Source: Raillietiella orientalis (Eukaryota). From it: a stretch of 64,000 nucleotides of DNA. Positions 25,655 to 60,449 of this stretch are shown here, one piece after another. Where the stretch lies: positions 6,262,001 to 6,326,000 of the forward strand of contig JAYWIR010000002.1 of NCBI GenBank assembly GCA_036172245.1, read 5' to 3'. Both the position numbers and the translations under genes were made by a program. The notes under the pieces were generated by a model. The model worked only from the letters and a program-made list of their open reading frames with translations, was not told the DNA's origin and did no database searches. Positions within the stretch are counted from its first letter, which is position 1, and each line of letters opens with the position of its first letter.

Positions 25655-27749
25655 ACATTTATCTTTGTTTTTGTGGTTCAGGGATTAATCCCAGAATAAT
25701 AGCAGTGTTAATCAAATGTATCCCCATGCTTCATCAAAGCTGCATTTTATTTGTGAGCCTTGATGATACTGAGTTCTGCTGTCTGCTAGTTTTTTGCATG
25801 ATTACAAGTCAGTAGTTGCTATCTGACATTATTTTATTCAGACTTAAAGATGTAATGTGTTCTTAATACGTAGTGCATAAGTAATCATGTCATAAGAAAA
25901 AAAAACACCTGTTGTACAAACGTTTATAATTGTTTAGAACTCATCTTCAATTTTTCAATAATACAGTTCGTGTGTAACCAGTCATCAATTGTTTGACCCA
26001 AATGAAAAGATAGCATCCTATGAAGGGAGAAGTGGAAATATGAAAAGTCATGACCTATGGTATCTTTTTCTCCTTGTTCCAAACCATGTAAATTAACACT
26101 TTTGGCGTTGAGGGAGCATTTGGAAGGAAGTAATGCATTTTATACATAAAAAAAAAAAAAAAAGATTCGTGATGCTGCTTGGTTTTGGTATATCATAGAA
26201 ACACTCAATATTTGTCAGTGATGCTGAAGAAGGTGGGATCCTATGGTCTTCCCTTCAAGGAAGGTTTTCTTCTTTCCCTTCAGTAATGAAATGCTGTCGA
26301 GAAATCAATGAAATAACGTAAAATAATTCAATCAATTTTAACAGATGTGAATTCGGCTACAATGAAAATGTTTTCTCTAATGATGTGACTCAATCAGTAG
26401 TAGTCTGAAGCAAAATTATGAAAATGAGATTCATTCTGGTTTGCAACGAGAATTTGAGATTTTTATGTTCTCAAATCGAAGGAAGCATTTAAATTGTTCA
26501 GTTTACTGAATGTGGAGTTTACCATGTCAAGCCTCTGTGCTTTGTTTTGCCAAATGAGTCGTTGGCTAAGGAAAATGTTGAGAAAAACTAGCTCACCATG
26601 AACATGCTAAAGAAAAGCAGAAATAAAACCTTCTGCGATAAAATATCCATCTAGTGAAAGTTGAAAATCTTTGTTCAGTCCGAGTCTAAAGATGCACCAT
26701 CAAATGGAAATCTGAAAATTTTTGTTGAGTTAAAAATTTTACTTTTACTCCTGAGAAATTCTACAGCATTTATGTTCCAAGATCCAGCCATTAATCAGGC
26801 CTTTTTATGTTACATTTTCAATGGTTGACATCACTTTATTGAATAGTTAATTCATTTTCGATGGCTAGTAAGTAAACCTCAGTTCAGTTTTCGTGTTGGG
26901 TAGCTCGAAATTTAATGCCAGTATTGGGGTGTGAGTTGTAAGGGCTGAATACTTATGTTACGAAATCCATACGTTATGACAAATAAATGCATTCAATTGT
27001 ATGAGGAATGTTGAATCCCATGCTTCATGTAAGCGATATCATCAATATGCCAAAGAACTGTTTTGCGACTCATGAATTATTTAAAAAAAAAAAATTCCAT
27101 TTCCAAATATGCATTTGTGGGTGAAACTCGATCATCTGGATTCGGAAGCCACGATGTCCCCACGATGAGCGTTTCGTGCCACAATGAGTTTTCCATAATG
27201 GAAAATCCATTGTGCCTTTCTGGTAGGCGTGGCTTCGTGTGCACCATTCTTTTGCCCTCAAGATGTATGCTGCGTGGCTCTTACTGAAACTTCATCGGAT
27301 GCTAATTACACAAATCCATCCAGACGATCCAAAATGTATGATGGGAGCATTTTATCGACAATAAAGCGATGCTTGAAATAAGTTTGTTCCTACGTCGATT
27401 CCCTCATTGCCTGTGTTCTCTGTCCACTTTTTCCTCCCCCCTCCAAAAGGTTCTCATAGAGTAATTTTATCCACAGTTTAGAAAATGATGGATTTTTCGC
27501 TTTCATTCTCAGATTGTTAAGGAAAGATGGCACCGTCTACACGTCCAATGCAACCGACCTTTGTCTTTTGCTACGTGAAATTTGCTTTACTGCATGATGC
27601 ATTTCCGTGGTGATGGCACTTTCATGCATCAGGCAACGGTTGCCTTAGTAACGCGGATAGTCACAACCTTGATCTTCAGGAATCACACGGGGGAGCAGCC
27701 ACTTCGACAGCACTGGTCGTAGTCGTGAAAGGAAGAAGGAAAGAAAGAT

Positions 27750-30700
27750 AAGATCAACTACAGATTTGCCAGCCAAAACTTTCATTCTGAAGAGCCTTGA
27801 AATAAATCTTTTTACGGACGTTTCGTTGCTATGCAAAAATATTGATCCTTTTTTCAGAAAATGGGTGAGATGGAACTGCAATCGAATCGGTCTTGGGAAC
27901 CCGTAGCGATCCTGCCTATAAGCGTTCCCGAATCGCAGTATTGATTCGAAAGCGAAGCTTTGGCTCCAGAATTTTTCCTACAAATGGTAAATAGCTCTTA
28001 GGGTGTTGTGCTCCATAGGTGTATTCAGATAGGCGTGAACTACGCCTCTCGGGTGACCACTCAAAGGTTTCCAGTCCCATCGACCATTCAAAAGGTCGAT
28101 GAGGCTTGAACTGTATCTTTGTGGTCTGTCTTTTGCAATCGAATTCTCCCATGAGTCTCGAATAAGAGTTAATTTGCACTTGCAAATTCTCTAAGGTTAC
28201 TTGCTGAGATCAAAATAACTCCAATGTGGATCGGCTCCCACCTTATCTCAGCAACCTTTAACGCGGAGGAAAGATATGAAGAGATGTATTCCAAACTATT
28301 TGTACATTCTTTCATTTTCTTTTTTTTTGAAAATGATTTTTCCTTAGCACTCGATGAAACGATACTGAGTGGGAATTCCTAGTTGACTTTTTTTTTTTTT
28401 TTTTTATCACGCTTGAAGCGGATGCTCTTTTCCTGCCAGCTGGAACACCCATGCTAATTTTATCATCAAGTGTTCTTCATTATTATGAAATTTTTAACGA
28501 TTAAGTGAAAGAATCGTCAGAAGACCCAACAAATAATTGCAAGATTGTGCCCATCGAGAATCTTTGTGTGTGTGTGTGAGAAAGAGAGAGAGAGAGAGAG
28601 AGGGAGGGAGAGACTTTGCTCGCATGGTGTTTCTGAATTTGAGGCGCTCGTGGATCTTAGGATGATCCCCGTGAGATAATGCCAAAAAGGATTTTCCTGG
28701 AGGACTATTTGTCGCGCGTATTCTTCCCGAAAGCAATTCTAGCTCGAATCCAGCCTCACTGGCTTCGTTCAGGGACTGCAGGAAGCAGGAGAAACCTGTG
28801 TGCGGTTACCTCTCCGATCACTTTCTGGCAGGTACATTCGACGGCAGGAGAGCGTGCAGAGGAACCGCAGACGTCGGAACAGTTTCGCAAAGCCAGACGT
28901 CACTCGCGAGGGAAGCATCCGAAAATAACTGAATCCCTTTTTTCTTTCACTCCATGGGTCAGTGGATTCTTGAGGAGAATTCTACAAATCCATAACCTCA
29001 ACAGGAATCCCCGGTCCAAGGGAACATCCACTCCACGACCTCGCGAGATCTTAGATGAAGCTGTTTTCCACTGAAAGACTGGGGACCCTTCATTTTGGGG
29101 ACTATTGCGTTCCTTCGCTGCCAAGAACTAGGGATTTGCACATGATCGGGAAAGCGCATCACTTGAGGAGACTCCGCGGCACTTTACAGATGATTTCTAA
29201 AGCTGCCCGGGTTCCTCCGCACTTCAAAGCACCAGTAGAGGGAAGGTCAGGTGCAGTCGTATCATCTCATATTCCGGCCCAAAGTCCGCTGGAACTGTTT
29301 TCCGAAAACAAACAACCCCTCGGGACATGTGATTTTGCACCCCCCCTCCCCGTCCCTTGATGTACCAACGAGAATTCTCACAGATCACCTGCGCTGTCTC
29401 TGGGCGCGACTGTCCCTCGTTGAAACCGTTGAAGCGCACTGTGCTCTCACGTGTGATTCCATTTGTACTTTGGGAATGCCTTGAGGGGTACGGTCTCCGT
29501 AGGCTCCAAACAAGTAGGAGCACACTGTTTGGACAAACAAGGTGCAGTCGAGGCGCAGGGACCTATTAGGACGAAAATCTAATCTTCGCGGACACTCGAT
29601 CAGTGGCGCTGGACGGAGTGAGAGCTGTGAGTGAAATCTTGATCTAACTCGAACCACGGAGACTCCAGTTGCGTTGAAGAGTTCGGCACGAGAGGGTCAC
29701 AGGTACACCGAATCCCACGCCTTCCGTACCAAACACACCGCATTTCTCCGAAGAGCAGCAGCCGAGGGCGCGCTTTTTCCGCAGTGGAACAAAGTTGCCT
29801 ACCACTAAGCGACGAGTAATTAAGAACTCCTTCTTCATTAAAGAAAAACGATTGCAATGGATCAATTTATTCTTCTTATCAAATAATATTTATAAATTGT
29901 TATGTTTTCCAAAATTTTCTCGTTCCAATTATGTATGCATCATACCAAAACTATACAAAGTGCAGAAAACTATACAAACTATCAAATAGAATACAGTTTT
30001 TGCATCATACAAAAACTGTACAAACTATTCAATGTGTAGAAACTATACAACTTCCAGCAATCCATCACAGTCAAGTGAAGAATTATTTAGATATGTTTCC
30101 CATATTTGAGATTCTTATTTCTGAGGCGCTTCCTATATACGAGCAATATAAAATTCGTAGATTTGTATGGAGCCAACATTTTGCATGACCCAGCTTATTG
30201 CTAAAATTCTTCTCCTTGATCTTCATAATCACAAGCAGGAGCTGATGACGGCGTGCTCGATAGGCCACTACAAACACTTACCTGATCACAGTGATCTATT
30301 TCAGGAAGTAGAGGAAGCGCTCCTTTGCCTTTCGCCGAAGAACGAAAAATTCTTCGCTTACGAATCTCTCCTCAAGAGTTTTCCAAGTGATTAAGGGCTG
30401 CACACGCATAACGTTTTTTGGCTCCGAGAACGTTCTTCTGTAAAGCTCGTTCGTATATGGGAATCCTCGGTCGAATCAACTTGGCTGTGAAATTTTCGCT
30501 CAAACCAGCACGAAGCTCTTGCGATGCTTTTTACTTAATTTTCGTCCCGGTTCACGGGCTCTTTTCTTGGCATTCTCGAAAAGAGGAGATTTTGTTCCTT
30601 CCCAGTGCTCGCCTCCCGCCTTTCAGAGTCAACAATTTTCATAGCTGCATAATTCAGATCTTCTTGCCAAGCAGAATCAAATATCCATTCATCTGATTAG

Positions 30701-35219: not shown

Positions 35220-35760
35220 GTGAAGTGAAATGAACTGAAAGGAAATAAAACAAATACACGGAATAAATAAAATAAAACAGAACAAACAAACAAACTAACC
35301 AATGAAATGAATAAATGAATAAATAAGCGGATAAATAAAAAAAGGTGAGGCAAAGTAAAATAAAAGGCAAGATAAGATAAAAAAATAAGATAAGATAAAA
35401 TAAATAAAATGAGATAAGGAGAGGTAAAATAAAATAAAAAAAAGATAAGATGAAATAAAACTATTAAAGGATATAATATATTATATAATTTCCTTCCGCT
35501 ATAAGATAATATATTATATTACTTCCTTTCCTTTTATTTTATTTTATTACATTTCATTTTCTTTTATTTTACTTCATCTTATCTTTGATTTTATTTTATT
35601 TTACCTCATCTTATTTTATCTATTTTATTTCATCCCACCATGTTTCTTTTACCTTACCTTGTCATGCTTTATTTATTTGCTTATTTACTTTATCGATCAT
35701 AACATAACACAACAGAACAGCACATAACATAACAGAATAGAATAGAACAGAATAGAAGGT
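35220..35760. repeat. AT-rich pentamer-based low-complexity tract with inverted (foldback) arrangement
   Basis: An A-rich AAAAT/AAGAT arm (~35220-35465), a central TA-rich spacer, a T-rich ATTTT/ATCTT arm (~35525-35695), then (AACAT/AATAG)n. Confidence 0.8.
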
Positions 35761-42745: not shown

Positions 42746-45700
42746 ACGGTGGGTTTACCTCGTGAACACCAGGGTTGTCCATCTTCCCTGAGGGCGCAGC
42801 GGGGGTAAAACCCTCCAAGGCTTGCCGCGCCATTCACTCGAGTGAAGTCAGTCGACTGACCTCACTCGGGTGACATCGTTCGGCTGGATCCGCAGGTCTT
42901 CCGAGAGCAGCGGCAGCGCCGGAGGGAATGACCAAGACTCAGTGATCCCTATCTGCGCGCTTCCACGTCTTCCGCTCCTGCCTTTCCCGGGAGCAGCAGC
43001 TGTGGCAGGAAGGTTGACCGCCAGAGGGAAGGGCTGCTCCAGGAGAGAGAGCGCGGCTCTTCGTCGAGAGGAACGCGTCACGGATGGGGAATAGGGACCA
43101 GTATGGCATCATCCAGTCCGGAAGAACTCGTGCAAACGCCTTCTTCCTACACGGGCATATGGGTCCCTCTTCCTCATCCTCCTGCATTTCGGGAGTCGTC
43201 CGCGTCAGAAGGGGCGCTTGCGTTCTCCAAGGTTCAGCCTTCGATCCCTGCGAATTCCAGGCTGAACGGTCAACTGGGTGTCCATGCCAGCCAGATGCTA
43301 AATGCTGTTTGCGGAGGGTGGGACTCGGGGAGACTACACTCCCTTCGCTGCGCATTTTCCAGGACACCCTGCATTCCACAGCATCCTTCGTCTGCGACGC
43401 TGGCCACAGTCGGGGCCAAGGAGAGGTCGCGCACGCACCTGCCTGGGTTTCCTGTCCAAGGTAACGGGTGGCAGCACCTTCCGGACGAACCCGAGGTCTT
43501 CGAAGAGGACCTCTGCTGCGTTCCTCTACCCCCGAAAAGGAGCGTCGGCGGCCACAGCCACACCCTCTTCGTCGCCAGGAGCGATCCTCTTGAGGGATTC
43601 TCGCCGGGGAAGGGGGGGCGGGGGGGAAACCACCTCGGTCCGTCTCTCCGTTCTCTGCCAGCCTATACCCGCTGTCCCGGAGAAGCTCGCGTATATCAAC
43701 TTTGCCCCATCCCTAGCGGAAGATCATCCTTATCATCCTTCCCGGAGGAAAGCCCGGGATGTTCCGGAGGAGTTTTCGGGACGACTGGAAGAATGGCCTC
43801 GCGCACCCGGCAACCTCGCATCCGTTCGACGACTCGCTGCTCCGCGGCTGCCAGCAGATCCTCGTGCTCGCCGGAGGCATTCGTCCCGCCGAGAGGGGAA
43901 GTCCAGAAGCCCAGTTGCCCGGAGCGGTCATCTCTCAGCGGGCAGCCTCGCCCCAGCTGGGATCCAGAGACTTTTCCGGGCAGGGGTGTTGCTCTTCGGG
44001 CGCATCCGACCGAGGTACTTGGGCGCTTCCAAAATTTGGGCGGGAGATTGCAGCAACTCCCGCAAAGTCTGAACCGGTGATTCAATTGCGCCTCAGGAGC
44101 CAGAAAAAAAAAAAAAAAAAGGAAGAAAAGGAAAAGGAGGGGCAGGGAAGGAAGCAGTTTCTTCGGAAGGGACTGCAGAATGATGCAGGATCGCCCTTCG
44201 TGCTGCGCGATTTTCCGCCGAGTTATCGTCCGTCTGCATGAGCGCAAATCCGTAACTCCTCGCTGGGGGGTCATCTGCATTGCGCACTTGACAGGCAAGC
44301 CGTGGAATTTGCTTTAAGGCACGGCCAGGTGACGTTGAGAGGGACGGGTGGCATTTTCTGCGGAGGAGGAGGCTGCGCTCAGGCTATTCGGAAATCAATC
44401 TTCCAGTCGCGAAGAGAGAAAGCGAAGAAAGCGGAGAATTGTTTTTGCAAGAAAATGGCGGCGGAGAAGTCCGTGGAAAGTTCCGCAACATTCGACCCAT
44501 CGTTGGGGCAATTAGGGGAGGGGGTTCCTCTGAGCGCGGCGCATCTGCATGGCACTTGCGAAAGGGGAGTGCTTTGGGGTACAGTAGCAGCGGGATTTGA
44601 CGTCACCCCTAACCACTCCCGTGGCGCTGCTTTCGTTGCAGAAACAATACACATTGTGGAGCGCGAGTGGTTACATGGATATTCAAACTGTACTGTACAC
44701 ATTGGAAGCATCTCTGAGACACCTGGAATTCCCAAAATAAAATCACAATCCGGACCGGGAGGCGGATGACGCTTTTATTTGCGAATTCCTCGCACTTGTG
44801 GAACGTCCAATGCAATAATCTGCGATTCGGTGAAGAAGGATACGAGTGCATTTCAATGAACACCATCTGGATAAACACAAATGTTGGTGTACACGGTGTT
44901 TGCTCACGAGTTTATTTTATAGGCGAATCGATCGATCCTCATTTTTTCCTATCAGAGTGCTCGAAAGATGCAGAGGTGAGATAAGAGCATTTCTCGTACC
45001 TTTAATCATCCGCACGTAATGCTATCCATTCAGTGCCAGATCACTCATTACACGGAGATATGCATTATGAATTTGAACCTTTATAATTTATCAAATGCCG
45101 CTTCATTATAATGGGAAGGCGATATTTATACGGCACCTGACACTCAGGCAAGATGAAGATGCAATTGCAATGTATTAGTTATGATTACATCCTGGCTCGG
45201 AGCGGTCAAGCCAGAAGGCAGGTCGGCGAATCTGCGAGAGCGCTTTTTTATCCGTCTGGAGCAAGGCATTTCTAAAATGGCTGAAGACATGGAAACCGTC
45301 CTTTCGAAACACCGTCAACACATGCCCCTTCTTAAAAAATCGACTCTTTTCAGTAAGAACTTCCGAGTGCCTGAAATGAAAGAGATTCATCCGGCAAGGT
45401 GAAGCAAGAGCTCCTCCTGAAAAGGGACGTAAAGGCACAGAGTGCATCATCCCCTTCTGTGTGTTTTAGCGGTGCGATTGCCTGTCTTATCAAGAATCGC
45501 AAAGATTGATTAGCAGTTCCGCTATGTCGAAATCCAGAGACTCAGAATTCATTCAGCATTAGCAAGCCGATCTCAGCAACAGCTTTCCAAAGGTCATCTT
45601 AGCCTTCCTGGAAGCATTTCTAGACGTCCGCAATGAACGGAGGATCAGCGTGTATCCGAACTCGCGTCCGAAATTCAGAAGACGTGGGTATGGAATGCAG

Positions 45701-47141
45701 GACCAAGGGTTACTTAGAAGTGATTGGATGGGTGCAGTGTCTGCCACGCCCTTCCGGTCGGGCTCACCGATAAGCGCTCAGATGGCGACACGCATCCAGC
45801 TTCAGTTTGCAGGCTGGAGATGGGATCCAGCTTTTTCCTCAGGAGTCTACAGCGATACAGAGCAAGCAGTTCTCTTGCTTAGGGCGGGTCAAAGGCCAGC
45901 AGAGTCGCAACCTCCGATGGAGGATTTTAGGAGCCTTTTTCGGACAAGAGAAATTCGTCAAAATTCGCTCTTGTGGACCCGTTTTTCTTACTTTTCTTAC
46001 AGCGGACGGACAGGTGAGATCTACAGCAGTGCCTGCCGATATTCCCACAAGTTGGGCGTCTCTCCGGGAGCGCCGCGATCGTCTCGCCCTCTGATGCGGG
46101 CAGGAGCCCTCCCAGTTCGGTTGCAAAGGCTGGGCACATCTCGGGCCGGAAGAAGCGCTTGGCAGAAAGCGATGGCCTCCTCCGAACTGGCGTCCGATCA
46201 CTCTGATGAACTCGGTCGTCCAGTTATTCTCGAAGCTGTGGGTCGCGAGACTAGGACGGATCGCAGAGTCCGTGGTCAGTCCGAAGCAATCCTATGCTGT
46301 TCATGGGCGGTCCATGAATGTGAACCTACCTTTCGCACGCATCTGGTTCCAGTTTCAGGAAGCATTGTGCTGGATGGTCGCGCAGCAGAGAGAGCTGCTG
46401 CCGACTCCAAGCTCAAGTGCCGACAGCCAGGGGAAAAGCCTTGGCGGGTGGCAGTTGATCTGCATAGAGCGCTCGATTACGTATAACACGGACTTCCTCT
46501 GGAGCGCCTCGGACTCCCAACGCACCTCCTTGTCTCCTGGAACTCCTCCTAGCACCACAATTTAATGAATTTTTCATCCAACATCTACTTCCAATTGATG
46601 CTGAAGGCGCACACGCTAGCGCACACGCTAATGCTGGCCAACCTGCCCAGCCTCTGCCCGTGCAAGCCTTCCGTGTCAGTCTACGTGAACGACCTGCTTC
46701 TCCTGCTGTCCATGTCCACCCCGGCAGCAAAACTCGAAGATTTCTTCGAGCTGATACGTTGGAGAGCAAGCATGAGAGACAACAGAACGCAATGCATGGT
46801 CGTACCGATGGATGCCTCATAGGAGGGGCAGGCCGACGAGATCCGCCTAAGAATCTACAGAGTCAGGTACTTCAGGTACCCTGGCGTACCGTTGGGCGAC
46901 TACTGAGCTGTAGAAGAGTCGTCGGCCTGCTTTCAGAAGGCAAAGATAGCTCCTAACCCGTTCCTCGACGAAAGTCCGTCTTGCAGGGTTGGGACTCCAT
47001 CAGGAACACCTTCGTTGTTCCCTTCTCCACCTCTTGTTTTTTGTTTGCCCTCTCCCTTATTCGGTAAGGATACAAGCGCAGCGCCTCCTGAGAATAGCCT
47101 TGTGGAACGCTGCAAGGTCCTGAATCCAACTAAAAGACTTG

Positions 47142-48372
47142 ATGGCACCGCGCCAGGACACTGGCTTGGTCATCCTGATCATTCACAGGATCGGACTGCA
47201 GATGCAGTTCCGACTTCTGACTGTTTGTGGAAAATTGTGGATTTGGCACTGGTGTCGTCCGGCACGTCACATCCTCCGGCGATACGCTGCAAGCGCAGGA
47301 CTCCTTTCGCTGCCGCCTCGCAGGCGACACAGGGTAGATGGATCTGGTTATCCCCAGAGGCATCTGCCCTCACTTCTGATAGCTCACCCGTGAATCTCCT
47401 GCCGCCCGAAGAACTGGGATGCCTGGCGGCCGGAGGCACGGGAATCCTGAGGGGTCACTCTGAAAGCGCGTCCAGAGGAATGACGACCGCTGCCCCATGC
47501 CACAAACGTGTATGTAAACTCCTCCAGAAACTCCTATGCAAGCCTCTGGGCGACCTCCTGCAGGATGGACGAAGTGGTCTCGAATACCCGTCTCGCTCCT
47601 TGACGCAAAACTTTGTCTGCCCCGAGGGCAAGCAGTAACAACAGCCCGCCGGCGGGGTGGGAGTTGTCCTGCAACATCGCAGGAGTCGAGAAACTCCTCG
47701 ACGGCTGCGAGACGAGCGAGTTGGTGAACGCCGCCACTCCTCGTTCCCGGGAGAAGAAGCTCCTCCAGTGGAGGGACCTGCTCTATGCGCTCCTCGAGGG
47801 ACCGACGCCGGTCCCTTCTTTGTGCGCGGACACTTCTGAGCTTTCGCTCCGTTGGAAACCACAGGATGTTCTGCTGTTTCCGCACTGGGGGGCTTCCAGT
47901 GCAACCGATGCAAGCACCTCGTTTCCGGAGAGCTGCCTCCTGTTGCCGAACTGCTGTCCCCTCACCTCCTGCTGGACTGCAGCGCCCCGGAGGACACGTG
48001 GCGGAGAATTGCTTCGACGCTTCGCCACCTGGAGGACCCCCTCGCTTCGGACTTGCTGCGGCGCTTCTTCGCGCAAGGCGGACTGAAGACGGGCGCTGGG
48101 ATCGCAACGATCTGTTGCCTCCGCGCCATAGCGACAGTCCGCGTTGTGGTGGAGTCTCGTTGGCAGCGAAGGGAGGCCACCAGCATGGCAGCCGCCTTGA
48201 TGAGGACGGCTGCAAAGTGGCTTCATCTGCCAAAAGTTGTGAGGGAGATCGCCTCCATAACAGCCGCTTCTAAGTCTTTAGTTTTATTCTTCTTTCTAAG
48301 AAGAATAAAACTAAAGACTACTGTCCCTGCTTTCCCGTGTTATTTCATTTATTTATTGTCTCCCCCACCGTT
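47142..48372 (+). repeat. Left arm of ~1.23 kb near-perfect inverted repeat (partner 58868-60098)
   Basis: Position x maps to 107240-x with no indel. Translations in several frames are identical between arms (e.g. ORFs 47613..48086+ and 59154..59627-). Confidence 0.97.
48273..48319. repeat. Perfect 22-bp stem / 3-nt loop palindrome containing AATAAA on both strands
   Basis: agtctttagttttattcttctt-tct-aagaagaataaaactaaagact. Confidence 0.95.
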
Positions 48373-48489
48373 CCCTACTTCCTTAGGAGCCGCCCCTGTG
48401 CCTGTGTCACTGCAAAGAGATTTTTTGTTTTTCCTGGCATCTCTTGTACTCAGGGTATGTTTTCCCCTTATTTGTGGTTTATTTTTTAC

Positions 48490-49600
48490 ATAAAAACCCG
48501 GAGCGACCGGGTACAAGCTTCCTTCGAACGGACAAAAGGCGAACGAGCGATAGTTCCTTTCTGCCCCTTTTTCCACGGGAAGGAGGACTGCGTCACCATC
48601 CGTGTACCGAAGAACGCCCAACCCGCCCCCGTCTTGGGAAGGCAGTCAAAGAGAGGTCTGGTTGTTCAGGGACCTCTCTTACAGCAGGACCGCAGCAAAC
48701 GTGCATTGTTTGCGCAGGGTCCAGTCTCGCCCGCACTTCCTAGTTTGCTGCCCGTGGAGAAGAATTCGGGGACCACGCAGCAGGAAACAACAACAACAAC
48801 AACAAAAGAAATGGGTTGTGTGGGGAAGGAAAAAGTTCGTTAGGGAGGGGTTCTGGAGCCTTCCCTGCATCTCCTTGGAGATGTGCGCAAGCTCTTCTTT
48901 CATCTTCTTTTGTAGGCGGATACACGCCGGAGGCTCTTCTCACCCAGGTTGCGATGAGGGAGGTGATCTTTCTGTCGCTTCCGCTTTGATACGCGCTGCT
49001 TCGATGCCACGGGCGCAGCTCGAGATTGCGTTTTCGGGAGCGCACCAGCATGCACTCGATGCGCTCAGCGTTCCCAGAGTCAGCTGCCGCAGAATGTCTC
49101 CCAGGTAGAGGGCACTTGCGCACGCAAGCGTCGGTGCGCACGTGCAGTCCATCCTCGATGCATTCCGCTCTTGCGGGGCAGGTCCACTCCCACGGTGAGG
49201 CAGAGGGAGGTACGCCCGCTGTTTCGTAGCACGGAGCGAGCTGCCCGGTTACGGAGACGCATCCGGCCCGTGCCCGAAGGAGGAATGCCATCTGCTCCCG
49301 GGGGGAGTAGCTCTGGGGAGAGGGGCGGATCAACAGTCAGGCTCACATGGTCCGAGAAGTTTTGCCCGGTTCCCCATTGCGGGGTTGCGGAGCAAATTTT
49401 TCGCAGGTGGATACCGGACCCCGACTGCTGTGACGACCGGAAGACGTCAAAGAAGGGAGTGGTAATGGGGAACGACGCCCCGTTTTTGCACGTGCTTCGC
49501 CGTCTCGCACGGAACAGCAGACCGCGTTCCAAGCTCCACGAGCGCTCTCCGGGTTAGCGCAGGGGCAGCACTGAGTTCAAGAATCGGCTCAGAGATGGCC
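48490..49600 (-). mobile_element. Decayed L1/Tx1 RT N-terminal fragment
   Basis: Minus strand TRKCGRDW (cf. KSPGPDG), then GDAVLLPVEKGAERNYRSFAFC (~48600-48530, cf. a.i.LIPK.KG....NYRPISLC). Upstream boundary is a guess. Confidence 0.5.
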
Positions 49601-51149
49601 TTCCCTCTCTCCTCGAATTCCAAAGCAACTGGTTTCCCGGAACTTCCTGCGACAACCGGGGTCTGAGGATCGAGGTGCTTTTATGGAGAGAAACGGCTCC
49701 CCGATGAAGACAGTTCCGTGTTCTCGAGGTATCTGTGAACGAGAAAAGTCATGGTTGAAGCAAAGAGAGGAAGGAAGGGAAGAGGAGAAGAAGGAGGAGG
49801 AAACGGGGGGGGGGGGGAAACGAAAAACAGGGAAACAAAAACAAAAACGAAACCCAAAATAAACAATCTGACGAGGAGTGCTGCAGACATGGATCACCTC
49901 AGCAACATCTGTCTCTGCGTTTATGTCTCTTGAAATCTCTTTTCTCCGATTCCTTTCCTTTCCAATTATGATCCTTGGTTGCATTACCGTCCTCGGCTGG
50001 AATAGTCGCAATCGCGTATCGCAGCTTCCGGGTAACGGCTCCAGACAAGAGCTCCGCGCTCGCACAAATCTGTTGTTAAGCAGCGCGAGCGGTTTTCGAA
50101 ACGCCGTATTAAAAGTCGAAACGCAAAAACCGAATGTTAATCGACAGAGCAAACAAAAAGAGGAGGAGATCGGGAAGAGGGCGATTTTTCTTTTCTGATT
50201 TCCTCACTTCAATTCAACGCGCACGCCGCCCAGTCCGGAGTCCCTCACCAGCCGAAGGGGGGGTGGGGGAATCGGATCGAGGTGGGGGCGCAGCCATCGA
50301 CGGAAGGGAAACGGAAGCGGAAAAGTGGGTCAGCCCCCCAGGCGAAACAAAAGTTGCTCGCTTCCCTGTGCCCCCGGGATCCTAGGAGAAATTCTCGCAG
50401 GAGTCCATTCACGGGTGTCATGGAATGCGATTATCATTTGTCAGAAACAGATTGTAACTCCTAATAGCCTTTATCCGGAGGTATTAATTCCGCTTTTTTG
50501 TTGTTGTTCTGGAAGCTGGAAGAAGAAAGGAAAAAAATGCGTGATGACACGCGGTACAGTGGCTGTTTTTTTGTTTTTGTTTGCTTTCCAGAAGGAAAGA
50601 AAAAAAAGAAAATCCGACCGCTTCCCCAGCCATTTTACTTCATAAAGTTTTTGAGGGACCGATGGGGCGGGAAGTAGAGAAGCAGCGAACGCGAATGCAT
50701 TTCGCGATACGCCAAACGCACACGTGCACGCATACACACACACACATAGGGAGAGCGCTAATGTGGCGGAAGCACATGAGCGCGACATTCTGAGATTCAC
50801 CAGTGGTCTGTGTCTTGGCCCGGGAAGCGCGTCCACGATGATCCCGACTGCGAAAACTATGAATAAATTCACGGTTTTTGCAGTCAGGGAAGAGCCGGGG
50901 AGGAAGCGAACCTGGGTACGTGTTTCTCACATGGGGAGCGTTTCGTGTATGCAAATGTATTCAGCGCAGGGCCAAAGGATGGGAGGAGGGGGAGCTGGCA
51001 AGACGAACTCTGCTTCCCGGGATCTTTGCGGGATGCGGTCCGTTCGCCCGCCGTTCCTCAGCCACCTCTGAGCCGCGGACCTGTTCCGCGATGACATCCT
51101 TCAGCGCGTCACTTCCACGTTCCTCTCGGGATCGTCCCGAGGCGCGTCG

Positions 51150-54100
51150 GGAATCAAGAACGGTAGGTCCCCGTGGGGAAGCTTGCAGGAGACCGTTCCT
51201 GGGACTGCTGCTGCTTGGCGATGGCGGTGACAATTTTCCTCTTCCGCGAAGGGAACTTTGGGCCGGAGCAACAGGGAGCGGGCAAGGGAAACACGAAACA
51301 ACCGACAAGAGGAGGCCTCCGGCTGATGACTTTGCAAGAACCGACCATTAAGATTACGACGAAGACATGGAGTAGTGATACGATCACCTCATGCACCACG
51401 AGACCTGTGTGCTCTTCCTCCACCTTCCGTTTTCTTCACCACGGAGGTTCGAAATACGAGACGAGTACCTAATCCCGCGTACGCCACGGGTGTTCCATAC
51501 TCGGAATGGACTCGGAGTGGACGTTGGGCGGGATGGTCGTCGGCCGCTGCACAGCACGTCGGTTCTCTGCTCCTGGTGGCCGTCCTGCAGAGGTCACGTG
51601 CACGGTCTCAGCGCCTGTAGCGCCTCGATCCTGCGACCAGTTCGCAGCCCCTGGCGGTGGAAGCCGGTCGATTGTTGCGGGAGAACCGAAAAGCGAGAAA
51701 CTTGGAAAGGAACCGCTCTGGCAACGGGAAGCCGCCAAGATGGCGATGCTTTACGCCCTCAGGGAAATTTCTCGAGGGACATAATCAATCGTCGGGAAGC
51801 CTCCGCTAAGCAGACGCGAGCGGGCGCGCCTCGGTTGGCGGGTCTTTCCGACACGCTTCCTGTACGCGTCCATCACCGTTCGGAGCCGGTGCCGAAGGGG
51901 ATCTGCAACGCAGGAGCAGCCACGCGACCTGGAAGCGAAAGGGCGCTCATCTCTGCGGTCGGCAGAAATGAGTCTGAACCACGCAGCCTCCGTATCCAGT
52001 GTGGACGGAGGTGGTTCTGCTGGACATGCAGAAGGCCCCAAGGAAGAACGAGCTGAACCCTCCGGGAGGCCCGAGGGAGGGGAAAATGAATCGTGCCGCG
52101 CCCCACCCCACCCTCTTCTTTGCCATGACCTCTTCCTCGCCTCCCGCCCAGCGCGCACGTAGCAGACTTGTGTTCATCGACGAGCCGACTCACCCGACTG
52201 GGGAGCTCCACGACGCAGCTGTCACCAGGTGCGCTGTCGCCGTCTGGACGGGAGCCCGGCAGAACTGCCGCACTGTTGCCGAAAGCGAGGGGAGGAAGAC
52301 CGGCTCGAGGCACGGGAGTAGACCTACCCTATGCGTTTAGTGTCTGTCTGAGACGTGCTGATCGTCAGCACGCCCAGGTGCTCCCTGGCGCTCCCACAAG
52401 CCTCGGAATCGCAGCTGGATTCCGGAGAGACCCGCGGCGCGCGCTGGCGAAATGGCAGCGCGCCGATAGCGAAGGGCGGGAGGGCAGGTCGTGAGCGCGT
52501 CCCTTTCGACGGCGCTCAGGGAGGAGGGGCTGTTCGTCTGTTCCACTTGCCACAGTGGCGAATCGTCTCACAGGTGCGGCGTATCTTCTCTTCCGTCCTC
52601 CGGAGTGCGCCAGCGAGCGGCGCGGTCGACGGACCGCTGCATTTCGATCCCACCATTCACCGTCAGCTGCAGCCAGCACTCCCCTGTTTTGTAGGTTCGC
52701 CGTGGGAGGGAGCCACCCCTGGGTCCGTGTGCGCGTCGCGGAGCAATTGGGCGCGTTGCTCACGACCGGGAGTGCCGGTAAGCGAGTTTCCTCGAGTTGG
52801 CCCGACGGCGGTCGCGTGCACAGGGCGGCGCGGCACGTGTGCACCCTCCTGGCGTCTGACGGTGCTCGAACACGGCTGTTTGTTTCTGGTGACAACGGAA
52901 CGCCGTTTCGTAACGGCCCGAAGTCCAGCAGCGAGCCACCGCCGTCGAATGTGCCTCCGGCCTCAGACAGGGTGAGCACGTGCCTCGCTCACCTTTTTCC
53001 AATTCCTTCCTCTCTTGACCAGGCCAGCTTTCAAGCATTCGCCTAGGTTGACAGGGATCAGTGAAAACGCGGAGGCGTCTGGAAGGAGTCTTCCCAGCAT
53101 CCCTCAAAAACACTGCTATCGATCGCTTAGGGTGAGTCTCCTCTATGGCCCTAAGCACCTCGATCCTAGATTATGGCGCGATTTCTTTTCCAGGGTACAC
53201 CGCGAGTTTCTCAAGGACTCCAGGTGTCCTCTCTTGCATCAGCGGGGCGAAAATTAGATGAACAGCGTGGAAGGTGACCTGGCGCCGCATGGCGGCAAAC
53301 TCATCGCTCAATGGGAAACGCCTCGGCTGGACAACGAAGCTACGCCCAAGGACCCGCAAGGGGTACATCAAGTAGCTCGGGCTTCCCCAAGAAAATGCCA
53401 AGATCCTCAGCTTCCTATGGGAGGTCTCCACCCTCCCTCATCGGTGCAAGATAATGCATCTTGCTGGTGCACTGTGACTTCCTTGAGAAAGAGGAGCGTT
53501 GCCATGTCATTTTCTTCTCCTATCCTCCCTCTTTTCCTCTTTCTCCCTTCCTCTTCTTTCCTTCTGTTTGTGGCGAAGACTTCTTCCTCTTCCCTCCTCT
53601 TTCCATCCTACTCCTCTTCCTCCTCCTTTCCTCTTATTCTTTCTCTTCCTCTTATTATTCCCCTAATATTATTCCCCTCATCCTATTCTTCCTTTCCTCC
53701 TGTTCTCTTCCTCTTCTCCCATCCCTTCCTCCCACTTCCTCCTCCTCCTTCTTTCCTCCTCTCTTCCTCGTTTTTTCGTCTTCCTCCTCCTCTTCCTCCG
53801 TCTTTCCTTCCTCCTCCCTTCCTTCCCTTTCCTCTTCACTTCGTCCTCTTCTTTTGCTCCTGTTGTTTTCTTCTTCTCCGATCCTTTCCTCGTTTTTTTC
53901 TCTTCCTCCCTTCCTCCTCCTCCTCCATCTTTCCTTCTTGCTTCCTCATCCTTCCTTCCTTCTTCCTCTTTTCCACCTCCCTTCCTCATTTCCACTCTTG
54001 CTCCTCCGCAGTGGCAACGGCCCCCAAAGAATGCATCCCACTGTGCAACTGCGTGGATCCTCCCACACGTGCTGCTGGGACGCACCGGAGATTGAATCGG

Positions 54101-54570
54101 AGTGTGGAGGCGCATTCTGCTCGGAGAGGCCTTCGCGTTTTCGAACTTCCCTGTCGCCTCCTCGCTGGGGATCTTCTCCCGCGCAGGGCTCCTCGAGGGA
54201 CCGACGCCGGTCCCTTCTTTGTGCGCGGACACTTCTGAGCTGGCCGAGTTTTCGCGGGGGCGTCCCGGCGAGCGCCCACTCGTGAGCGCGAGAAGGCCGC
54301 GGGGTCTCCCGGTCCGGGAAGCAGGGCGGTGCACTGAAGGGAGTCTGAAGGCGACTGGCTCGCGGGAACCTGCGGGCGCATCCCATCCTTCCCTGCTCGA
54401 GACAGACCCCTGGGAGTCATCTCCACTGCCCGGGTTCATTCCACCTTCCGATCGCTCCTCCATTTTCTGGCCCTCTGCGCTCTTTCCCCTCCGCGCCTCC
54501 CGATTTCTGTACCCACTGAGAGTGGGTAGATGCGAACGTCATCCTTACTGAGCGAGCTTTATTTAAAATG
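51150..54570 (+). mobile_element. Decayed L1/Tx1 ORF2 relic interrupted by a pyrimidine tract
   Basis: LLLGDGGDNF (~51210, cf. GDFN); ASGAVDGPLHFDPTIHRQLQPAL (~52610-52680, cf. KSPGPDG...f...l.p.L); YRSLRVSLLYG..LWRDFF (~53117-53190, cf. KYLGV); zf-RVT entry region at ~54160-54250 homologous to 47765-47845. Confidence 0.55.
53510..54005 (+). repeat. ~500-bp polypyrimidine (CTT/CCT) low-complexity tract
   Basis: Almost exclusively C/T on +. The overlapping long ORFs (S/L/F/P-rich on +, K/R/E-rich on -) are compositional artefacts. Confidence 0.9.
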
Positions 54571-56299
54571 GATGTCTAGGGGATGAGGAAGCAGCTCTTT
54601 GAGCTCGCACGAGCAGCAACCGGCTGAAGCGCTTCTATGGTTTCCCTCTTTGGTTGCTTTAAATCCGTGTCTTCAGACTCTCGTGCTTGCAATCTCGAAG
54701 ACTGACAGAGGACTTGGGGGTGAAGGGACATGGCTGCCTGACGGTCACCCGGATCCGTGACCGCCGTTCTCCTCCATCTGCTACCGTGGTGGTGGTGGTG
54801 GGGTCCATCTTTCTGCTGCGCCGCCAGTGGGCGTCGGGAGATTGCCAAAGGGAACAACAGTGGGGAAGGGGGGAAGCTTCGCGTCTATCCCTTCCATCGG
54901 AGCAGGATGCAGCGGGCGTTGGCGCCTCTGCGGTGATCGGGCAGCATTCCCAGGCCCTCCCCCGCGCCAGAGGAGGACCGCACGAGCCTAGCAGCGACAA
55001 AACTGCGGGAAACAAGAAAAGGGCGATCAGCGCGGCCGAGCGCGGGTCTCCCCGCGTGCTTCCTTCTCGCAGCTGGGGCCGCTCGCCGTTGGAGGCTGAG
55101 TGGGGTAGCGGCCGCGCAGTACTTCGCGAGCTCCTGGGCGTCCCCGCGCTGCCCACGGGACCCGATCGGAGCTTGCGCGCGCGCGCTCTTGCCGCTACAG
55201 ATGTGCGGGCGTGTAAATCTCTGGCGTCACGCGCCGCGGGAGAGTTCATCTCGGGGAGTCGACCTCAGAACACGTGATGCCGGGAGAACGCGCCTCCCTG
55301 CTCTCCAGCTCGCTCTAGGAGCCTCTTCCAGCGGAATCCGTCCTACCCGCGTTCCCTTTCGGTGACCCGATCGCTCCTGGTTCGATCCATCATTCGGTAT
55401 TAAACTTTTCCTCCCACACGAGGAGGATCATCGTGTCCAGGCTTCCCGGGAGCGAGCAGGGACTCGCGCGCGGGGCGGCACGCAGCGGTTATCCCTGTGA
55501 ATGATAAAAACGTGCCCCCTCCGGACCGGCGGCGGGCAGCTCGCGTGGAAATTAATTACGCGGGAATCAAAGTTTCGGGAAGTCGGAATAATCTCCGGGA
55601 AGCGTTCCCGAATAATTACGATAATAAACGCTATCGACGCGCGCGTTCCCGTTCCGGCATCGGCGGAGAGGCGACACGCAATGAGCGATCTGTTATCATC
55701 TTTTCTGGAAATCATCGGGAAACATCCTGGAGTAATTTCTTCCTAATTGCATTTTCCCTCTTATCGCCCAGCGCATCCTCGGGATTTCGGTAGTAAAAGC
55801 GCGGATCCGCCGGGATGTGCGCGCGTTGCCCGGTCCCATATTTCTTCTTGGAGGACGGGTCCCGGATGAAGGCAGCAGAGCAGCGCGAGAGCCGAGACGT
55901 TTCTCCCGGAGGTCCCCCCTTTATCTGGGGGGAATAAATATGTCCAGGGGAGATCTGGAATGGAAGACGCGGATTCTGCATTGAAAAACCAAAAGAAAAA
56001 GAAAAAACAAAAAACAAAAGGAGAGGAGGAAGTCAGTGGGGGTGCCCGCATTCCAGGGTTGCCCCTTCGATCTGAGCCTGTTTCGATCGATGGAGGGTTC
56101 CTCTGCAACTTCTCGCATAATGGAATCTCCGGGACGATGGACAGCTCCGTACTACCCGATTCTTCGAGGTGCCCGCGAGAGGGGTGGACCGGCCGACTGC
56201 GTCTACTTTCGTCCTCTCGGAGGACCGGTGCAGCCGCTAGAGCAAGAGGAACCGGGAACGAGCTGCTGCTCTGTACACGCCAAGCCCTTTGCCCTAAAC

Positions 56300-57200
56300 C
56301 TCCCGCCCACCCCTCCATCACCATCCGCCGGTTGCCTTTGGCATGCGGCCCGCATGCCGGTCGGATGCAGCCGGCGACGTCGCTCTCGTCCCACGCATGG
56401 CAACGGCTCCTCGTATGCAATCTGCACTCAACTCTCGAACTGTCCCTTCTTTTGAACTCTCTTCCCGTGGTGTTCGTCTGCAGGGAAGCCCTCCCGTGCA
56501 CGGCTAGCAGGGCCTCCTTCTTCCGTTTTCTTCCTTCCTGCCAGATTTCGTGGACTCTTCGGAAAACATTGCCATGGGTGAGGGCGAGACGACAGCTGCC
56601 CCTGCTTCCTCCACCGCGGATGAGCTGTCCCGTGCAGTCTTGCCTTTGGCTGAGTCGCGGCGCCAGGTGCACGCAAGAGAAGCTGGAGGTACGCACCCGC
56701 AGGATGCCGAATCAAACGACAAGACCAAGAAGGGGTCAGCGGAAGTTCGAAGCAGTCGAGTCGTCACCTCCTTTGAATATTCTCGGGCTGTCAACCCGTG
56801 CCGCCACTGCTGCTCGCAGTCGACTTGCCCCTTCCGGCTGAGACTCCCTGCCCCCGCGATGCGAGCGAGATGAGCGTTCAGCTGCCCTCCCTCGGGCGAT
56901 CGCCTAGAAGTGACCACCGCCGCCTCACCCCGTTCGCCACCCCGTCTTCGTTTCAGCACGCTTCTTGGCTTCAGCCTCGCCCAGACTTTCGCCTGGGGGC
57001 CGGGGGACGAAGAGCAGAAGGAACGGTGCGCACACCGAGGTCAGATGTCTCGTTTAGCGAACGCCCGATTACCAGGTTCAAAAAGGGCATGGGCGTGGCG
57101 GTCAGCATCGCAGGGTGACCAGGGGTGAGAAGGAGGCGATGACGACGAACCGAGAGAGTGCGATAGCCGCTGCTAGGCTGCAGAGTCCACAACTAAAAAA
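56300..57200 (-). mobile_element. Possible decayed L1/Tx1 3' fragment (zf-RVT)
   Basis: Minus frame VFRRVHEIW...KEALLAVHGRASLQT...SRVECRLHTRSRCHAWDE loosely resembles zf-RVT. Confidence 0.3.
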
Positions 57201-58867
57201 TTTCGATTTCGCCGGAAGACGGTGGCCTTGAGAAGGAATGGCTTCACTTCCTCCGACCTTCCACTTCGCGAGATGCGATCGACTTCCGGGTTTCCAGGAC
57301 CTCTGGCCACTTCCCTGCTTCCTTCTCCTCTCCTAGAGAGAGGAGGGGAGGGGGGGAGGGAGAACGCTGCGGAAAGACGCGTGGTTGCCTGGTTCATCGG
57401 CAGAGCAGGAAGGAATACGGAAATCGCGCATCCTGGGCATCCCAACTGTTTCCCGCTGCCAGGGGGAGGCGCGGAGGCAGGAGTCGGCAGGGAGCGATCG
57501 ACGCGGGAATCAGGAGATGGCGACGAAGAAACGGCCATTCGGAAAAAAAAAAAGAAGGTGGAGGGAGGAGACGAGCAGAAGGAGAACGCCGAACGACTCA
57601 AGGTCCTTTCGACCAGCTTAGTCGGCGGCAGCAGCGCTATTTCTTCGCTCACCCTTTGGCAGATCTCCGGGAGAGAATGGGAGGAGAGCTCAGGTGCGCG
57701 CAAAAATCGGGAGGGAGTAGGAAAAAGCCCCGTGGAGAGTAGGAGATCGCTGTGGCAGGAAAAAATTCGACTCTGTCGGGGATCGGCGGGCGCGACGTCC
57801 CCAGGGGCGTGCAAAGCGGCCCTCGATCTCTTACCCGAGGGTTTTCTCTTCCTCCGAGCCGAGAGGGCACTCTGAAGCGGGAGGCAGCTCCTCTCCCCGT
57901 CGGCATAGCTCCGGCGGCAATGGCGCTTTGCAGAGGAGGCGCGCGGGTGCCGGGAGGAACGCGTGCTTGCGTTCGTTCTCCGACCCGTGGACCTACTTCT
58001 GGAAGTTGCGTCATGTGAGAGATCTCCCACTCCCTTTTCTTTTTTTTTTTTTGGTCTATGTCAAGTAGTAGCGAAGTAGTCGTTGGGAAAAGGGCTTTTT
58101 TTCCCGAGACGGTTGCCTTGCCAACCGGGTGCCGAAGGGTGACACCCGTGAAACTGGAGAAATCGTTGTCAGTGCCGCGCGGACGTCAAGAAGAAAAATG
58201 GTCGAGATGTGTATCTTAATATTGTGATCCATCATGCCCTGGATCCACCGCAGGAGGGTATATCTCCGATCCTGGAATGCGATCGGCTCTTTCAGTTCGG
58301 AAGCGAAGGCACGATCCAAGAAATCCGTTTCCCCAGAAACGCGAGATGATCATCGGCACAGCGGTTCGTTTCCTCCGATCGCCCTTCCCTCCGACGAAGC
58401 TCCCTGCGAATCTTCTCCCCATCCGCGCTACCCTGTTTGCCGACATCTCGACTCCGTCCTGGTACCGACGGTTCTTCGTCCATGCTGCCGTCGTTCGTGA
58501 TCCAGCGGCTCGACAGCGCGAGGAGCCGCCTGGATGCCCCCCTACCAGTCCCCGTTTCCGTGGTTTCCTGTTCTGTGTGGCCTTCTAAGGAGCTTCTCCG
58601 AAATTTCCTGTTGTCTCGCGCATTTTTTTGCTTCCTCTCGATCAGCTACCCCAATATCTGCTTATATGTACATGTACACACACACATGCACACTTTATAT
58701 ATTTATATGTCTCCGGCATCAGCATATAAATGTGCGGGCGGGTGTGTTTTTACCCGGTGACCCCGGGACGTCTATTGAAAAAAAAATAAACCACAAGTTA
58801 GAGGGGGATGGCATCTCCTGAATACAAGAGATGCCCCCTTACAGACCGACTTCTAAAAAAAATAGGA

Positions 58868-60098
58868 AACGGTGGGGGAGACAATAAATAAATGAAATAA
58901 CACGGGAAAGCAGGGACAGTAGTCTTTAGTTTTATTCTTCTTAGAAAGAAGAATAAAACTAAAGACTTAGAAGCGGCTGTTATGGAGGCGATCTCCATCA
59001 CAACTTCTGGCAGATGGAGCCACTTTGCAGCCGTCCTCATCAAGGCGGCTGCCATGCTGGTGGCCTCCCTTCGCTGCCAACGAGACTCCACCACAACGCG
59101 GACTGTCGCTATGGCGCGGAGGCAACAGATCGTTGCGATCCCAGCGCCCGTCTTCAGTCCGCCTTGCGCGAAGAAGCGCCGCAGCAAGTCCGAAGCGAGG
59201 GGGTCCTCCAGGTGGCGAAGCGTCGAAGCAATTCTCCGCCACGTGTCCTCCGGGGCGCTGCAGTCCAGCAGGAGGTGAGGGGACAGCAGTTCGGCAACAG
59301 GAGGCAGCTCTCCGGAAACGAGGTGCTTGCATCGGTTGCACTGGAAGCCCCCCAGTGCGGAAACAGCAGAACATCCTGTGGTTTCCAACGGAGCGAAAGC
59401 TCAGAAGTGTCCGCGCACAAAGAAGGGACCGGCGTCGGTCCCTCGAGGAGCGCATAGAGCAGGTCCCTCCACTGGAGGAGCTTCTTCTCCCGGGAACGAG
59501 GAGTGGCGGCGTTCACCAACTCGCTCGTCTCGCAGCCGTCGAGGAGTTTCTCGACTCCTGCGATGTTGCAGGACAACTCCCACCCCGCCGGCGGGCTGTT
59601 GTTACTGCTTGCCCTCGGGGCAGACAAAGTTTTGCGTCAAGGAGCGAGACGGGTATTCGAGACCACTTCGTCCATCCTGCAGGAGGTCGCCCAGAGGCTT
59701 GCATAGGAGTTTCTGGAGGAGTTTACATACACGTTTGTGGCATGGGGCAGCGGTCGTCATTCCTCTGGACGCGCTTTCAGAGTGACCCCTCAGGATTCCC
59801 GTGCCTCCGGCCGCCAGGCATCCCAGTTCTTCGGGCGGCAGGAGATTCACGGGTGAGCTATCAGAAGTGAGGGCAGATGCCTCTGGGGATAACCAGATCC
59901 ATCTACCCTGTGTCGCCTGCGAGGCGGCAGCGAAAGGAGTCCTGCGCTTGCAGCGTATCGCCGGAGGATGTGACGTGCCGGACGACACCAGTGCCAAATC
60001 CACAATTTTCCACAAACGGTCAGAAGTCGGAACTGCATCTGCAGTCCGATCCTGTGAATGATCAGGATGACCAAGCCAGCGTCTTGGCGCGGTGCCAT
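58868..60098 (-). mobile_element. Right arm of the inverted repeat: 5'-truncated decayed LINE 3' end, near-identical to 47142-48372
   Basis: Reverse complement of the left arm, with the same frameshifts and stops. Includes the zf-RVT motif CNRC..HLLLDC and the hairpin at 58921-58967. Looser homology continues to ~60138 and ~58845. Confidence 0.9.
58921..58967. repeat. Second copy of the perfect 22-bp hairpin
   Basis: agtctttagttttattcttctt-aga-aagaagaataaaactaaagact. Confidence 0.95.
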
Positions 60099-60449
60099 AG
60101 AGTGTTTAGTCGGATCTGGGGCTTTGCAGCGCCTCACGGGAGGGTGGGAAGGGGAGGATGCAAAGATGAGTTATTTGTTTTCACCTAAACCATCAGAATC
60201 CTAGCCGAGTGCTTTGCTCAGCCCTCAGCAGCGCTCTCCTTTTCTCGTCTTGTCCCTCCCTAAATCTTTCTATATGTTTCGGTGTGCGTAAAAAAGTCAG
60301 AGCCATTTCCCACATCAGATGGAATTCCTTGAAAAGCTGCTGTCATGGTCATCAGAATTTTCTATTAAAAACAAAAAAAACTGATATATAAAAGGAAAAA
60401 AAAAATCATCATAGAACACGAAGGTCTTGTGGTTTCTCACTTTTACTCC

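Follow-up and report, generated by a model that had tools for sequence, protein, structure and literature searches.

The locus

Why should two fragments of dead LINEs, lying in inverted orientation in the genome of Raillietiella orientalis, be almost identical when the rest of their family is ~70% identical to them? An earlier note on this DNA saw in them old relics homogenised by repeated gene conversion and, beyond that, a special palindrome or hairpin-RNA locus. We analysed the window, a stretch of 64,000 nucleotides (contig JAYWIR010000002.1, positions 6,262,001 to 6,326,000), together with other copies of the family in the assembly. The answer that we consider probable, judged from the sequence, is that two old LINE insertions were later homogenised by cis-templated conversion from a nearby copy, without crossover.

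47142..48372, + strand: left arm, comprising the thumb, C-terminal domain and 3' UTR start of a dead L1-type LINE ORF2
58868..60098, - strand: right arm, a dead and 5'-truncated member of the same LINE family that differs from the left arm by 6 substitutions
47223..48222, + strand: perfect core of 1000 bp (partner 59018-60017)
48373..58867, no strand: 10.5-kb spacer, with no Pfam match in the scanned ORFs and no Rfam match

The arms are reverse complements in ungapped register and differ at 6 of 1231 sites (47156, 47160, 47222, 48223, 48233, and 48243), with 10,495 bp between them. The inverted pair without indels around a spacer of ~10.5 kb, the six or seven substitutions near the arm ends, and the identical central kilobase that the earlier note described were thus all recovered. 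The differences cluster at the edges: under uniform placement of six differences, a perfect run of the core's length has P = 0.0003. The core may represent the most recent conversion tract. With blastn, the match widens to 47108-48380 and 60131-58860 (1273 bp, 98.6%) and is the sole self-match >60 bp within the window. At >99% identity, the inverted arms have the form of a flip/flop or palindrome locus.

Identity of the LINE

46185..47141, + strand: RT-domain relic with frameshifts and stops, present in the left copy only (tblastn E 5e-100)
48273..48319, + strand: private hairpin with a 22-bp stem (z -7.8), formed by a ~17-nt inverted insertion just past the ORF2 stop

On sequence grounds, both arms are assigned to the 3' parts of dead L1-type (L1/Tx1) LINEs. 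The left copy runs on upstream into the RT domain, where a tblastn alignment with a nearly intact relative found in this genome spans 46185-48259, with E values down to 5e-100 (46185-47366). This relative matches Pfam RVT_1 at 6.5e-21, whereas the RT relic itself scores 0.0097, below the family cut-off. Of the reading of the arms as the thumb, zf-RVT, and 3' end of an L1/Tx1 ORF2, the LINE identity held. The Pfam zf-RVT domain (PF13966) was matched in neither the arm nor the relative; a CxxC...HLLLDC...W motif was seen by eye. No Pfam match to an AP endonuclease was found in the relative, whose locus begins mid-ORF. Database relatives, with only 22-31% identity to the family, carry endonuclease (PF03372), RT, and often zf-RVT domains. 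In the YADD-type RT motif of the relative, the C-terminal Cys/His motif, the 5' truncation, and the conserved 3' end, the family resembles L1-clade (L1/Tx1) elements. The private hairpin is common to both arms (58921-58967 in the right arm) and absent from the other 43 copies displayed. An atlas search of 45563-46183 returned unnamed clusters only.

Edges and termini of the two copies

48373..48516, + strand: the left copy's own 3' tail, ~69% identical to the right tail and ending in the family's conserved terminal motif
58748..58867, - strand: 3' tail of the right copy, with a terminal motif of its own; left-copy homology stops at the element end
60099..60139, - strand: the right copy's 5' stub, left unconverted; LINE homology runs to the truncation point, which is approximate

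Homology continues past both ends of the arms at about the 70% that the earlier note had seen. At the outer edge it is at family level (75% over 51 columns), and the last ~40 bp of the RT relic match the right copy at that level only; at the inner edge it is 69% over 112 columns, with a gap of ~31 bp. Chance-level flank similarity, which would have told against conversion, was not found at the inner edge: the extension there scores 42, and shuffled sequences reach 4 at most. Flank extension was not above the null in several other pairs.

The terminal motif of the family closes each copy, decayed differently in the two, and the DNA beyond is unrelated. Separate decayed termini with unrelated DNA beyond were also seen in L006/L023, L010/L019, L011/L128, L114/L117/L118, and the C10 and C2-outer pairs. 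Since the 3' termini of the arms have decayed separately and their flanks are unrelated, gene conversion of old insertions is favoured over a fresh duplication or retrocopy. At the 5' edge, the partner ranks only 11th and 6th of 45 copies. For each focal 3' tail, the closest match is the other one (first of 60 and first of 57; 69%, with 64-66% for the runner-up), a result that an old local duplication would produce as well. When the ends were checked by eye for target-site duplications, also as a sign of a past inversion, none was convincing; the right copy alone offered a candidate, which is C-rich and weak.

Homogenisation among neighbouring copies

The survey set comprised 73 family copies, aligned in a faster mode; most of the 40 added copies were chosen for sharing a contig with another. 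An exact tract of at least 100 bp was found in 16/30 same-contig pairs <200 kb apart, where pairs inside trios are not independent, in 2/26 pairs at 200-500 kb, in 1/24 at 0.5-1 Mb, and in none of 66 beyond 1 Mb or of 2482 cross-contig pairs. Four pairs had been chosen since equal search scores hinted at identity, and leaving out the three of these under 200 kb gives 13/27. Inversion is not needed: below 200 kb, 9/15 inverted and 7/15 direct pairs have a tract. Partners lie up to 213 kb apart, homogenised neighbours occur on at least nine contigs, and pair identities range without a break from 77 to 100%, falling as the distance grows. Exact matches <40 bp showed no local enrichment.

Within the focal neighbourhood, the copies are mosaics. 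L003, at +185 kb, is 71% identical to the arm over 47280-47790 and 93% over 47800-48240 (Fisher 1e-17), where the best copy from another contig reaches 76%. L016 is similarly divided (75% vs 93%, P 3e-5); the test was not significant for L005 (P 0.18), and L004 is without a local partner. Third and fourth partners are involved, up to ~210 kb away. In a tree of 69 of the 73 copies, 22/29 well-supported clades, counted by hand from the printout, are single-contig, and the six C2 copies at 6.10-6.49 Mb, which are all copies within ~210 kb of the locus, form one clade (100/98). Matches ≥150 bp long and ≥90% identical number 13/161 inside three blocks of 184-200 kb and 0/246 between blocks. Two unselected 200-kb blocks (400 kb) hold eight local pairs at 90% or above, four of them at 95% or above.

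Within the core, the partner is 100% identical, against a median of 71% for the 72 other copies. A count of copies across the genome, suggested by the earlier note, did not find many near-identical ones: the best non-partner is 75% identical, among 40 scored of 1686 candidates. With this value and the 0/2482 cross-contig pairs, we rejected a young, possibly non-autonomous, mobile element. Loss of mismatch repair was not supported as a cause, as MutS_V matches are present on seven contigs and MutL matches on three (domain matches only). The genome also has a Spo11-type domain match.

Converted tracts lean GC-ward. In tests that take sites as independent, the ratio of strong-to-weak to weak-to-strong changes is 67:24 for private differences within tracts and 690:449 for shared changes (P 0.014 vs private); unpartnered copies have 3763:1824 (P 1e-5 vs shared). 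GC content is 59.3% in partnered clusters vs 57.3% (P 0.007).

The spacer and other local duplications

53798..54589, + strand: ~800-bp two-copy segment; the second copy (G000:C2:6326150-6326945) is direct, 98% identical, and 10.35 kb away
54188..54241, + strand: 54-bp patch within the non-LINE DNA of the spacer, an exact match to arm bases 47789-47842

A gene or RNA was not detected in the spacer, in a Pfam scan of 61 window ORFs, which could miss spliced genes, and an Rfam scan of 43000-64000. The 54-bp patch has bases specific to the arm, which are lacking in the neighbours L003 and L005. The non-simple part of the ~800-bp segment has no further copy in the genome. C39 carries a ~8.1-kb inverted local duplication (6.9 + 1.2 kb; 99.8 and 98.7%), and a partial Piwi-domain duplicate is another. 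Since local DNA duplications occur here, some near-identical pairs are duplications, including L129/L130 and probably L124/L125. Upstream, the latter pair (709 kb apart) is also alike in non-LINE sequence; a segment may have been moved or duplicated.

Weighing the explanations

It is unlikely that one arm is simply a recent local duplication of the other, pasted where there was no earlier homologous copy. Local copy-paste is real here, as the C39 duplication, the 800-bp spacer unit, and the 54-bp patch attest; however, beyond the stretch of identity both focal copies continue as diverged LINE sequence that stays in register and ceases to match exactly where the element ends, and their mismatches are concentrated at the edges. 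Still less credible is an RNA route, whether local trans retrotransposition of a relic or conversion templated by LINE cDNA or transcript. For Ty and Tf2, cDNA-mediated conversion has been described (PMC6598467), the young related subfamily L075/L078 (98.4% across contigs) points to recent RT activity, and one partner is often more 5'-truncated than the other. Nevertheless, the pairs differ at precisely the 3' terminus, where a fresh retrocopy has to match, and non-LINE DNA is also copied locally; a cDNA that stops at a few hundred kb would, in addition, be unexpected.

We regard as very improbable a hairpin-RNA locus (endo-siRNA source or ADAR substrate) or a flip-flop locus whose identity is kept for function. 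In a read-through transcript, the convergent arms could pair into dsRNA of ~1.2 kb; Piwi-domain matches occur on four contigs and adenosine-deaminase-domain matches on two, and 8/10 pairs <30 kb apart at 90% identity or more are inverted. This skew is small, and would be expected if deletion removes close direct repeats. Moreover, direct pairs are homogenised as often as inverted ones, partners are as distant as 213 kb, and the spacer lacks an Rfam or Pfam feature in the regions scanned. The observed pattern does not need a hairpin-RNA or flip-flop role, and the special locus of the earlier note was not supported, given homogenisation on at least nine contigs and in both orientations. An assembly or polishing artefact seems the most remote of these explanations: collapse of near-identical repeats could raise 98-99% to 100%, but 70% cannot become 99% that way. 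Against it also stand the continuum of identities that decays with distance, the 66 transitions and 35 transversions among private differences, and the six fixed differences and distinct flanks that the arms retain.

Conversion between old neighbours agrees with partners too alike for the age of the family, tract-like mosaicism, and decay with distance in cis. With the best other scored copy at 75%, graded edges, and separate decayed 3' termini, the earlier note's reading of repeatedly converted old relics appears sound. Two independent and ancient LINE insertions, 10.5 kb apart and facing tail to tail, would first have decayed. Breaks in one copy would have been repaired more than once by homologous recombination with the same-chromosome neighbour as template, each event overwriting ~1 kb without crossover and the outermost 40-140 bp staying unconverted. 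The conversion route would be DNA break repair; the distance limit would stem from a homology search confined in cis to a few hundred kb, at the scale of loops or domains; mismatch resolution would be GC-biased, and the focal pair would be neutral. Because local copying of this kind also connects neighbours at many other places in the genome, the locus would be an example of a common process and not a special RNA gene; frequent cis-restricted templated repair genome-wide appears to be the best reading.

Wider meaning

The focal locus is ordinary for its genome, and the wider pattern matters more. It is possible, and we suggest it only tentatively, that templated repair is unusually active here, GC-biased, and restricted to cis (~200-300 kb), overwriting repeats already at least 20% diverged with MutS/MutL genes present. 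If so, age signals of TEs would be lost under this regime, repeats across the genome would cluster by chromosomal neighbourhood, and repeat-rich DNA around AT-rich gene islands would owe its high GC content partly to it; sequence alone would hold a fossil map of homology-search domains. By rough extrapolation, eight pairs at 90% or more per 400 kb correspond to thousands of pairs in 210 Mb, so that repeat-divergence dating would be badly distorted; substrates for inversion and deletion would be continually renewed from dead elements. One assembly would then offer many natural donor-acceptor pairs, from which one could estimate how far germline ectopic repair reaches, how long its tracts are, how much mismatch it tolerates, and how strongly it is biased towards GC, and test whether pairs stay within the borders of chromatin domains.

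Comparison with known systems

A comparable genome-wide case was not found in the literature as represented by titles and abstract starts, with subscription papers mostly outside the search. Judged against that literature only, the process is a known one, conversion between neighbouring Alu copies, at an unusually large scale. For neighbouring Alu elements, non-allelic conversion has a reported range of ~10 kb (Aleshin & Zhi 2010, cited in PMC8230782 and PMC6598467). As there, dispersed retroposon copies are homogenised in cis at a rate that falls with distance; unlike there, perfect tracts of 0.7-1.6 kb commonly reach out to ~200 kb, the copies are dead LINE relics ~30% from the rest of their family, and neighbourhood clades extend to 0.4-0.9 Mb. 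Ectopic conversion of human Y-chromosome LTRs (PMC4921805) involves tracts of 14-450 bp at most (mean 99) at two hotspots; the patchwork from several donors and the preference for intra-chromosomal donors are alike, whereas the tracts here are kb-scale and on many contigs. The Saccharomyces chromosome XIV flip/flop locus (PMC9731477), whose arms bear sporulation genes and for which both orientations are documented, also has inverted, continually homogenised arms around a unique spacer, there of tens of kb; the present arms consist of dead LINEs, and homogenisation extends to direct pairs. Finally, a cohesin loop-extrusion-guided RAD51 search within a domain, shown in mammalian cell reporters (PMC12701822), predicts that cis donors at up to hundreds of kb are used preferentially, and the distance scale observed here agrees with this prediction; the two may be linked.

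The inverted pair and its edges

Self-BLAST of the window (G000:C2:6262001-6326000), in an assembly of 210 Mb and 491 contigs, returned a sole long repeat, 47108-48380 against 60131-58860 (1273 bp, 98.6%). The inverted pair had been accurately described before: its arms, 47142-48372 and 58868-60098, differ by 6 substitutions in 1231 bp with zero indels, around a perfect core at 47223-48222, a run with P=0.0003 if differences were placed uniformly. The claimed graded edges also held once flanks were included, as the match fades gradually beyond both ends with no sharp stop. LINE reverse transcriptase (RT) motifs were seen in translation upstream of the left arm. Near-intact relatives in the same genome (RVT_1 match at 6.5e-21) align by tblastn to 46185-48259, and in the right copy their alignment starts only at ~60107 and runs inward. 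Together with database relatives at 22-31% identity, which are endonuclease-RT proteins and in many cases carry zf-RVT, they identify both arms by sequence as dead L1-type (L1 or Tx1) relics, the right one 5′-truncated, as the earlier note had supposed of their LINE origin.

Probable conversion rather than duplication

Among the 40 scored of 1686 candidates in the genome, nothing but the partner was above 75% identity to the arm, and the core has a median identity of 71% to 72 other family copies. At the 5′ edge the partner ranked 11th and 6th of 45; in the 3′ tail it ranked first, at 69%. The family terminal motif closes both copies, decayed differently in each, and the DNA beyond it is unrelated. 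A new retrocopy should match at the terminus, where the focal copies differ, and a DNA duplication would have no reason to stop at the element terminus, yet homology stops there. Both arms carry a private ~17-nt inverted insertion 3′ of the stop codon that is present in 0/43 other displayed copies, and which therefore had a single origin and was then copied. The separate termini, unrelated flanks, ~70% edges and common insertion support the gene conversion proposed earlier over recent duplication. A core without mismatches, flanked by shoulders at 97-98% and edges at ~70%, would imply more than one conversion episode.

Homogenised neighbours across the genome

Contrary to the earlier suggestion, the locus is not special, since the same homogenisation links neighbours on many contigs. 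Further pairs, first hinted by equal search scores, were confirmed on contigs C18, C10, C69, C24, C48 and C41, and two nested inverted LINE-relic pairs lie a short way to the right of the window (G000:C2:6334915-6357553; 1063 bp at 98.5%, 1658 bp at 99.9%). Our sample comprised 73 family copies, most additions being selected for a contig shared with another copy; 28 of the 73 have a partner sharing an exact tract of at least 100 bp. Such tracts occur in 16/30 same-contig pairs <200 kb apart (13/27 without three pairs picked on the score hint; inverted 9/15, direct 7/15), in 2/26 at 200-500 kb, 1/24 at 0.5-1 Mb and 0/66 beyond 1 Mb, and in none of 2482 pairs across contigs. In many pairs a core of 0.7-1.6 kb is perfect and mismatches sit at the edges; some have scattered mismatches, and flank extension is absent in several.

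Single-contig clades make up 22/29 of the well-supported clades in a tree of 69 copies (4 were omitted for their short length, and the bootstrap had not entirely converged), where the six copies lying between 6.10 and 6.49 Mb on C2 all form one clade (support 100/98). Along its length, identity to the arm leaps from 71% to 93% in family copy L003, 185 kb off (Fisher 1e-17), and shifts from 75% to 93% in L016; the mosaic contrast in L005 was not significant. The top three matches of L008 are C24 neighbours (77-79%), and no close partner was found for L004. Among three compared blocks, two chosen blind (C1, C5) plus the C2 block, matches reached 90% in 13/161 within blocks vs 0/246 between blocks.

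Some of the near-identical pairs counted are duplications, since local copy-paste is also present. The spacer holds an 800-bp segment that includes 54 bp copied exactly from the arm and has a single other copy, 10 kb off; C39 carries an inverted duplication of ~8.1 kb (6.9+1.2 kb, 99.8/98.7%) ~110 kb apart (G000:C39:653647-661761 / 767565-776863); and on C38 a Piwi-domain gene region is partly duplicated, inverted, at 99%, ~36 kb apart (G000:C38:1646385-1647428 / 1681001-1683542).

The members of a direct C1 pair (1.7 kb, 98.7%, 709 kb apart; G000:C1:1112881-1114586 / 1822192-1823898) also have non-LINE DNA in common upstream of the LINE relic, and the start of the pair may resemble a DNA-transposon end. 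L075 (C105) and L078 (C91) represent a related LINE subfamily that is young: although on different contigs, they are 98.4% identical, and they have long open frames.

Mechanism and alternative readings

A break would arise in one repeat copy and most likely be repaired, with no crossover, by recombining with a homologous copy that the search locates in cis; conversion and local duplication would both be compatible with such templated repair from a nearby donor. MutS and MutL domains were found in the genome. The few-hundred-kb scale may resemble the domain-limited homology search that the accessible part of PMC12701822 reports in mammalian cells. Differences private to one partner are AT-biased (67:24 strong-to-weak : weak-to-strong, equilibrium GC 0.39), changes shared by partners less so (690:449, 0.53), and unpartnered copies are intermediate (0.45); these spectra, whose sites are not independent, fit GC-biased conversion. 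The pairs may either have co-evolved since youth or been overwritten once diverged.

It could be argued that a hairpin-RNA function keeps the arms identical, as Piwi and deaminase domains are found in the genome and 8/10 pairs <30 kb apart are inverted. However, homogenisation also affects pairs in direct orientation and partners far apart, and such a function is therefore not required to explain identity. Apart from conversion itself, occasional crossover could possibly invert the spacer, by analogy with the yeast flip/flop region as far as it is described in the accessible part of PMC9731477.

Other features of the window

Three open reading frames stand out:
4011-5378, ORF with a tyrosine-kinase-type domain fragment, likely one exon of a spliced gene
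10622-12592, minus strand, uninterrupted FAM135-like ORF
24501-25253, CID-domain ORF

For the FAM135-like host gene, two of the three best matches are ostracod proteins (61-63%), with insects next, which indicates no more than an animal source, probably an arthropod. An AT-rich island at 12000-30000 (30-46% GC, lowest at 30-33% at 14-22 kb) lies within DNA of 55-66% GC. CpG observed/expected over the whole window is 0.95, and methylation-driven decay has thus left no footprint. At 35357-35757 lies a cluster of degenerate arrays built on three distinct pentanucleotide units. A 307-codon open frame at 45563-46486 continues into the LINE RT relic; it had no Pfam match, and its Atlas matches were unnamed clusters only.

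Relation to known systems

No comparable case was found in the part of the literature covered. According to the accessible parts of the sources, conversion is established between Alu neighbours within about 10 kb (PMC8230782, PMC6598467) and between Y-linked LTRs, with tracts of at most 450 bp (PMC4921805). The process proposed here is already known; gauged against that literature, it apparently reaches further, has larger tracts and is more prevalent among old relics.
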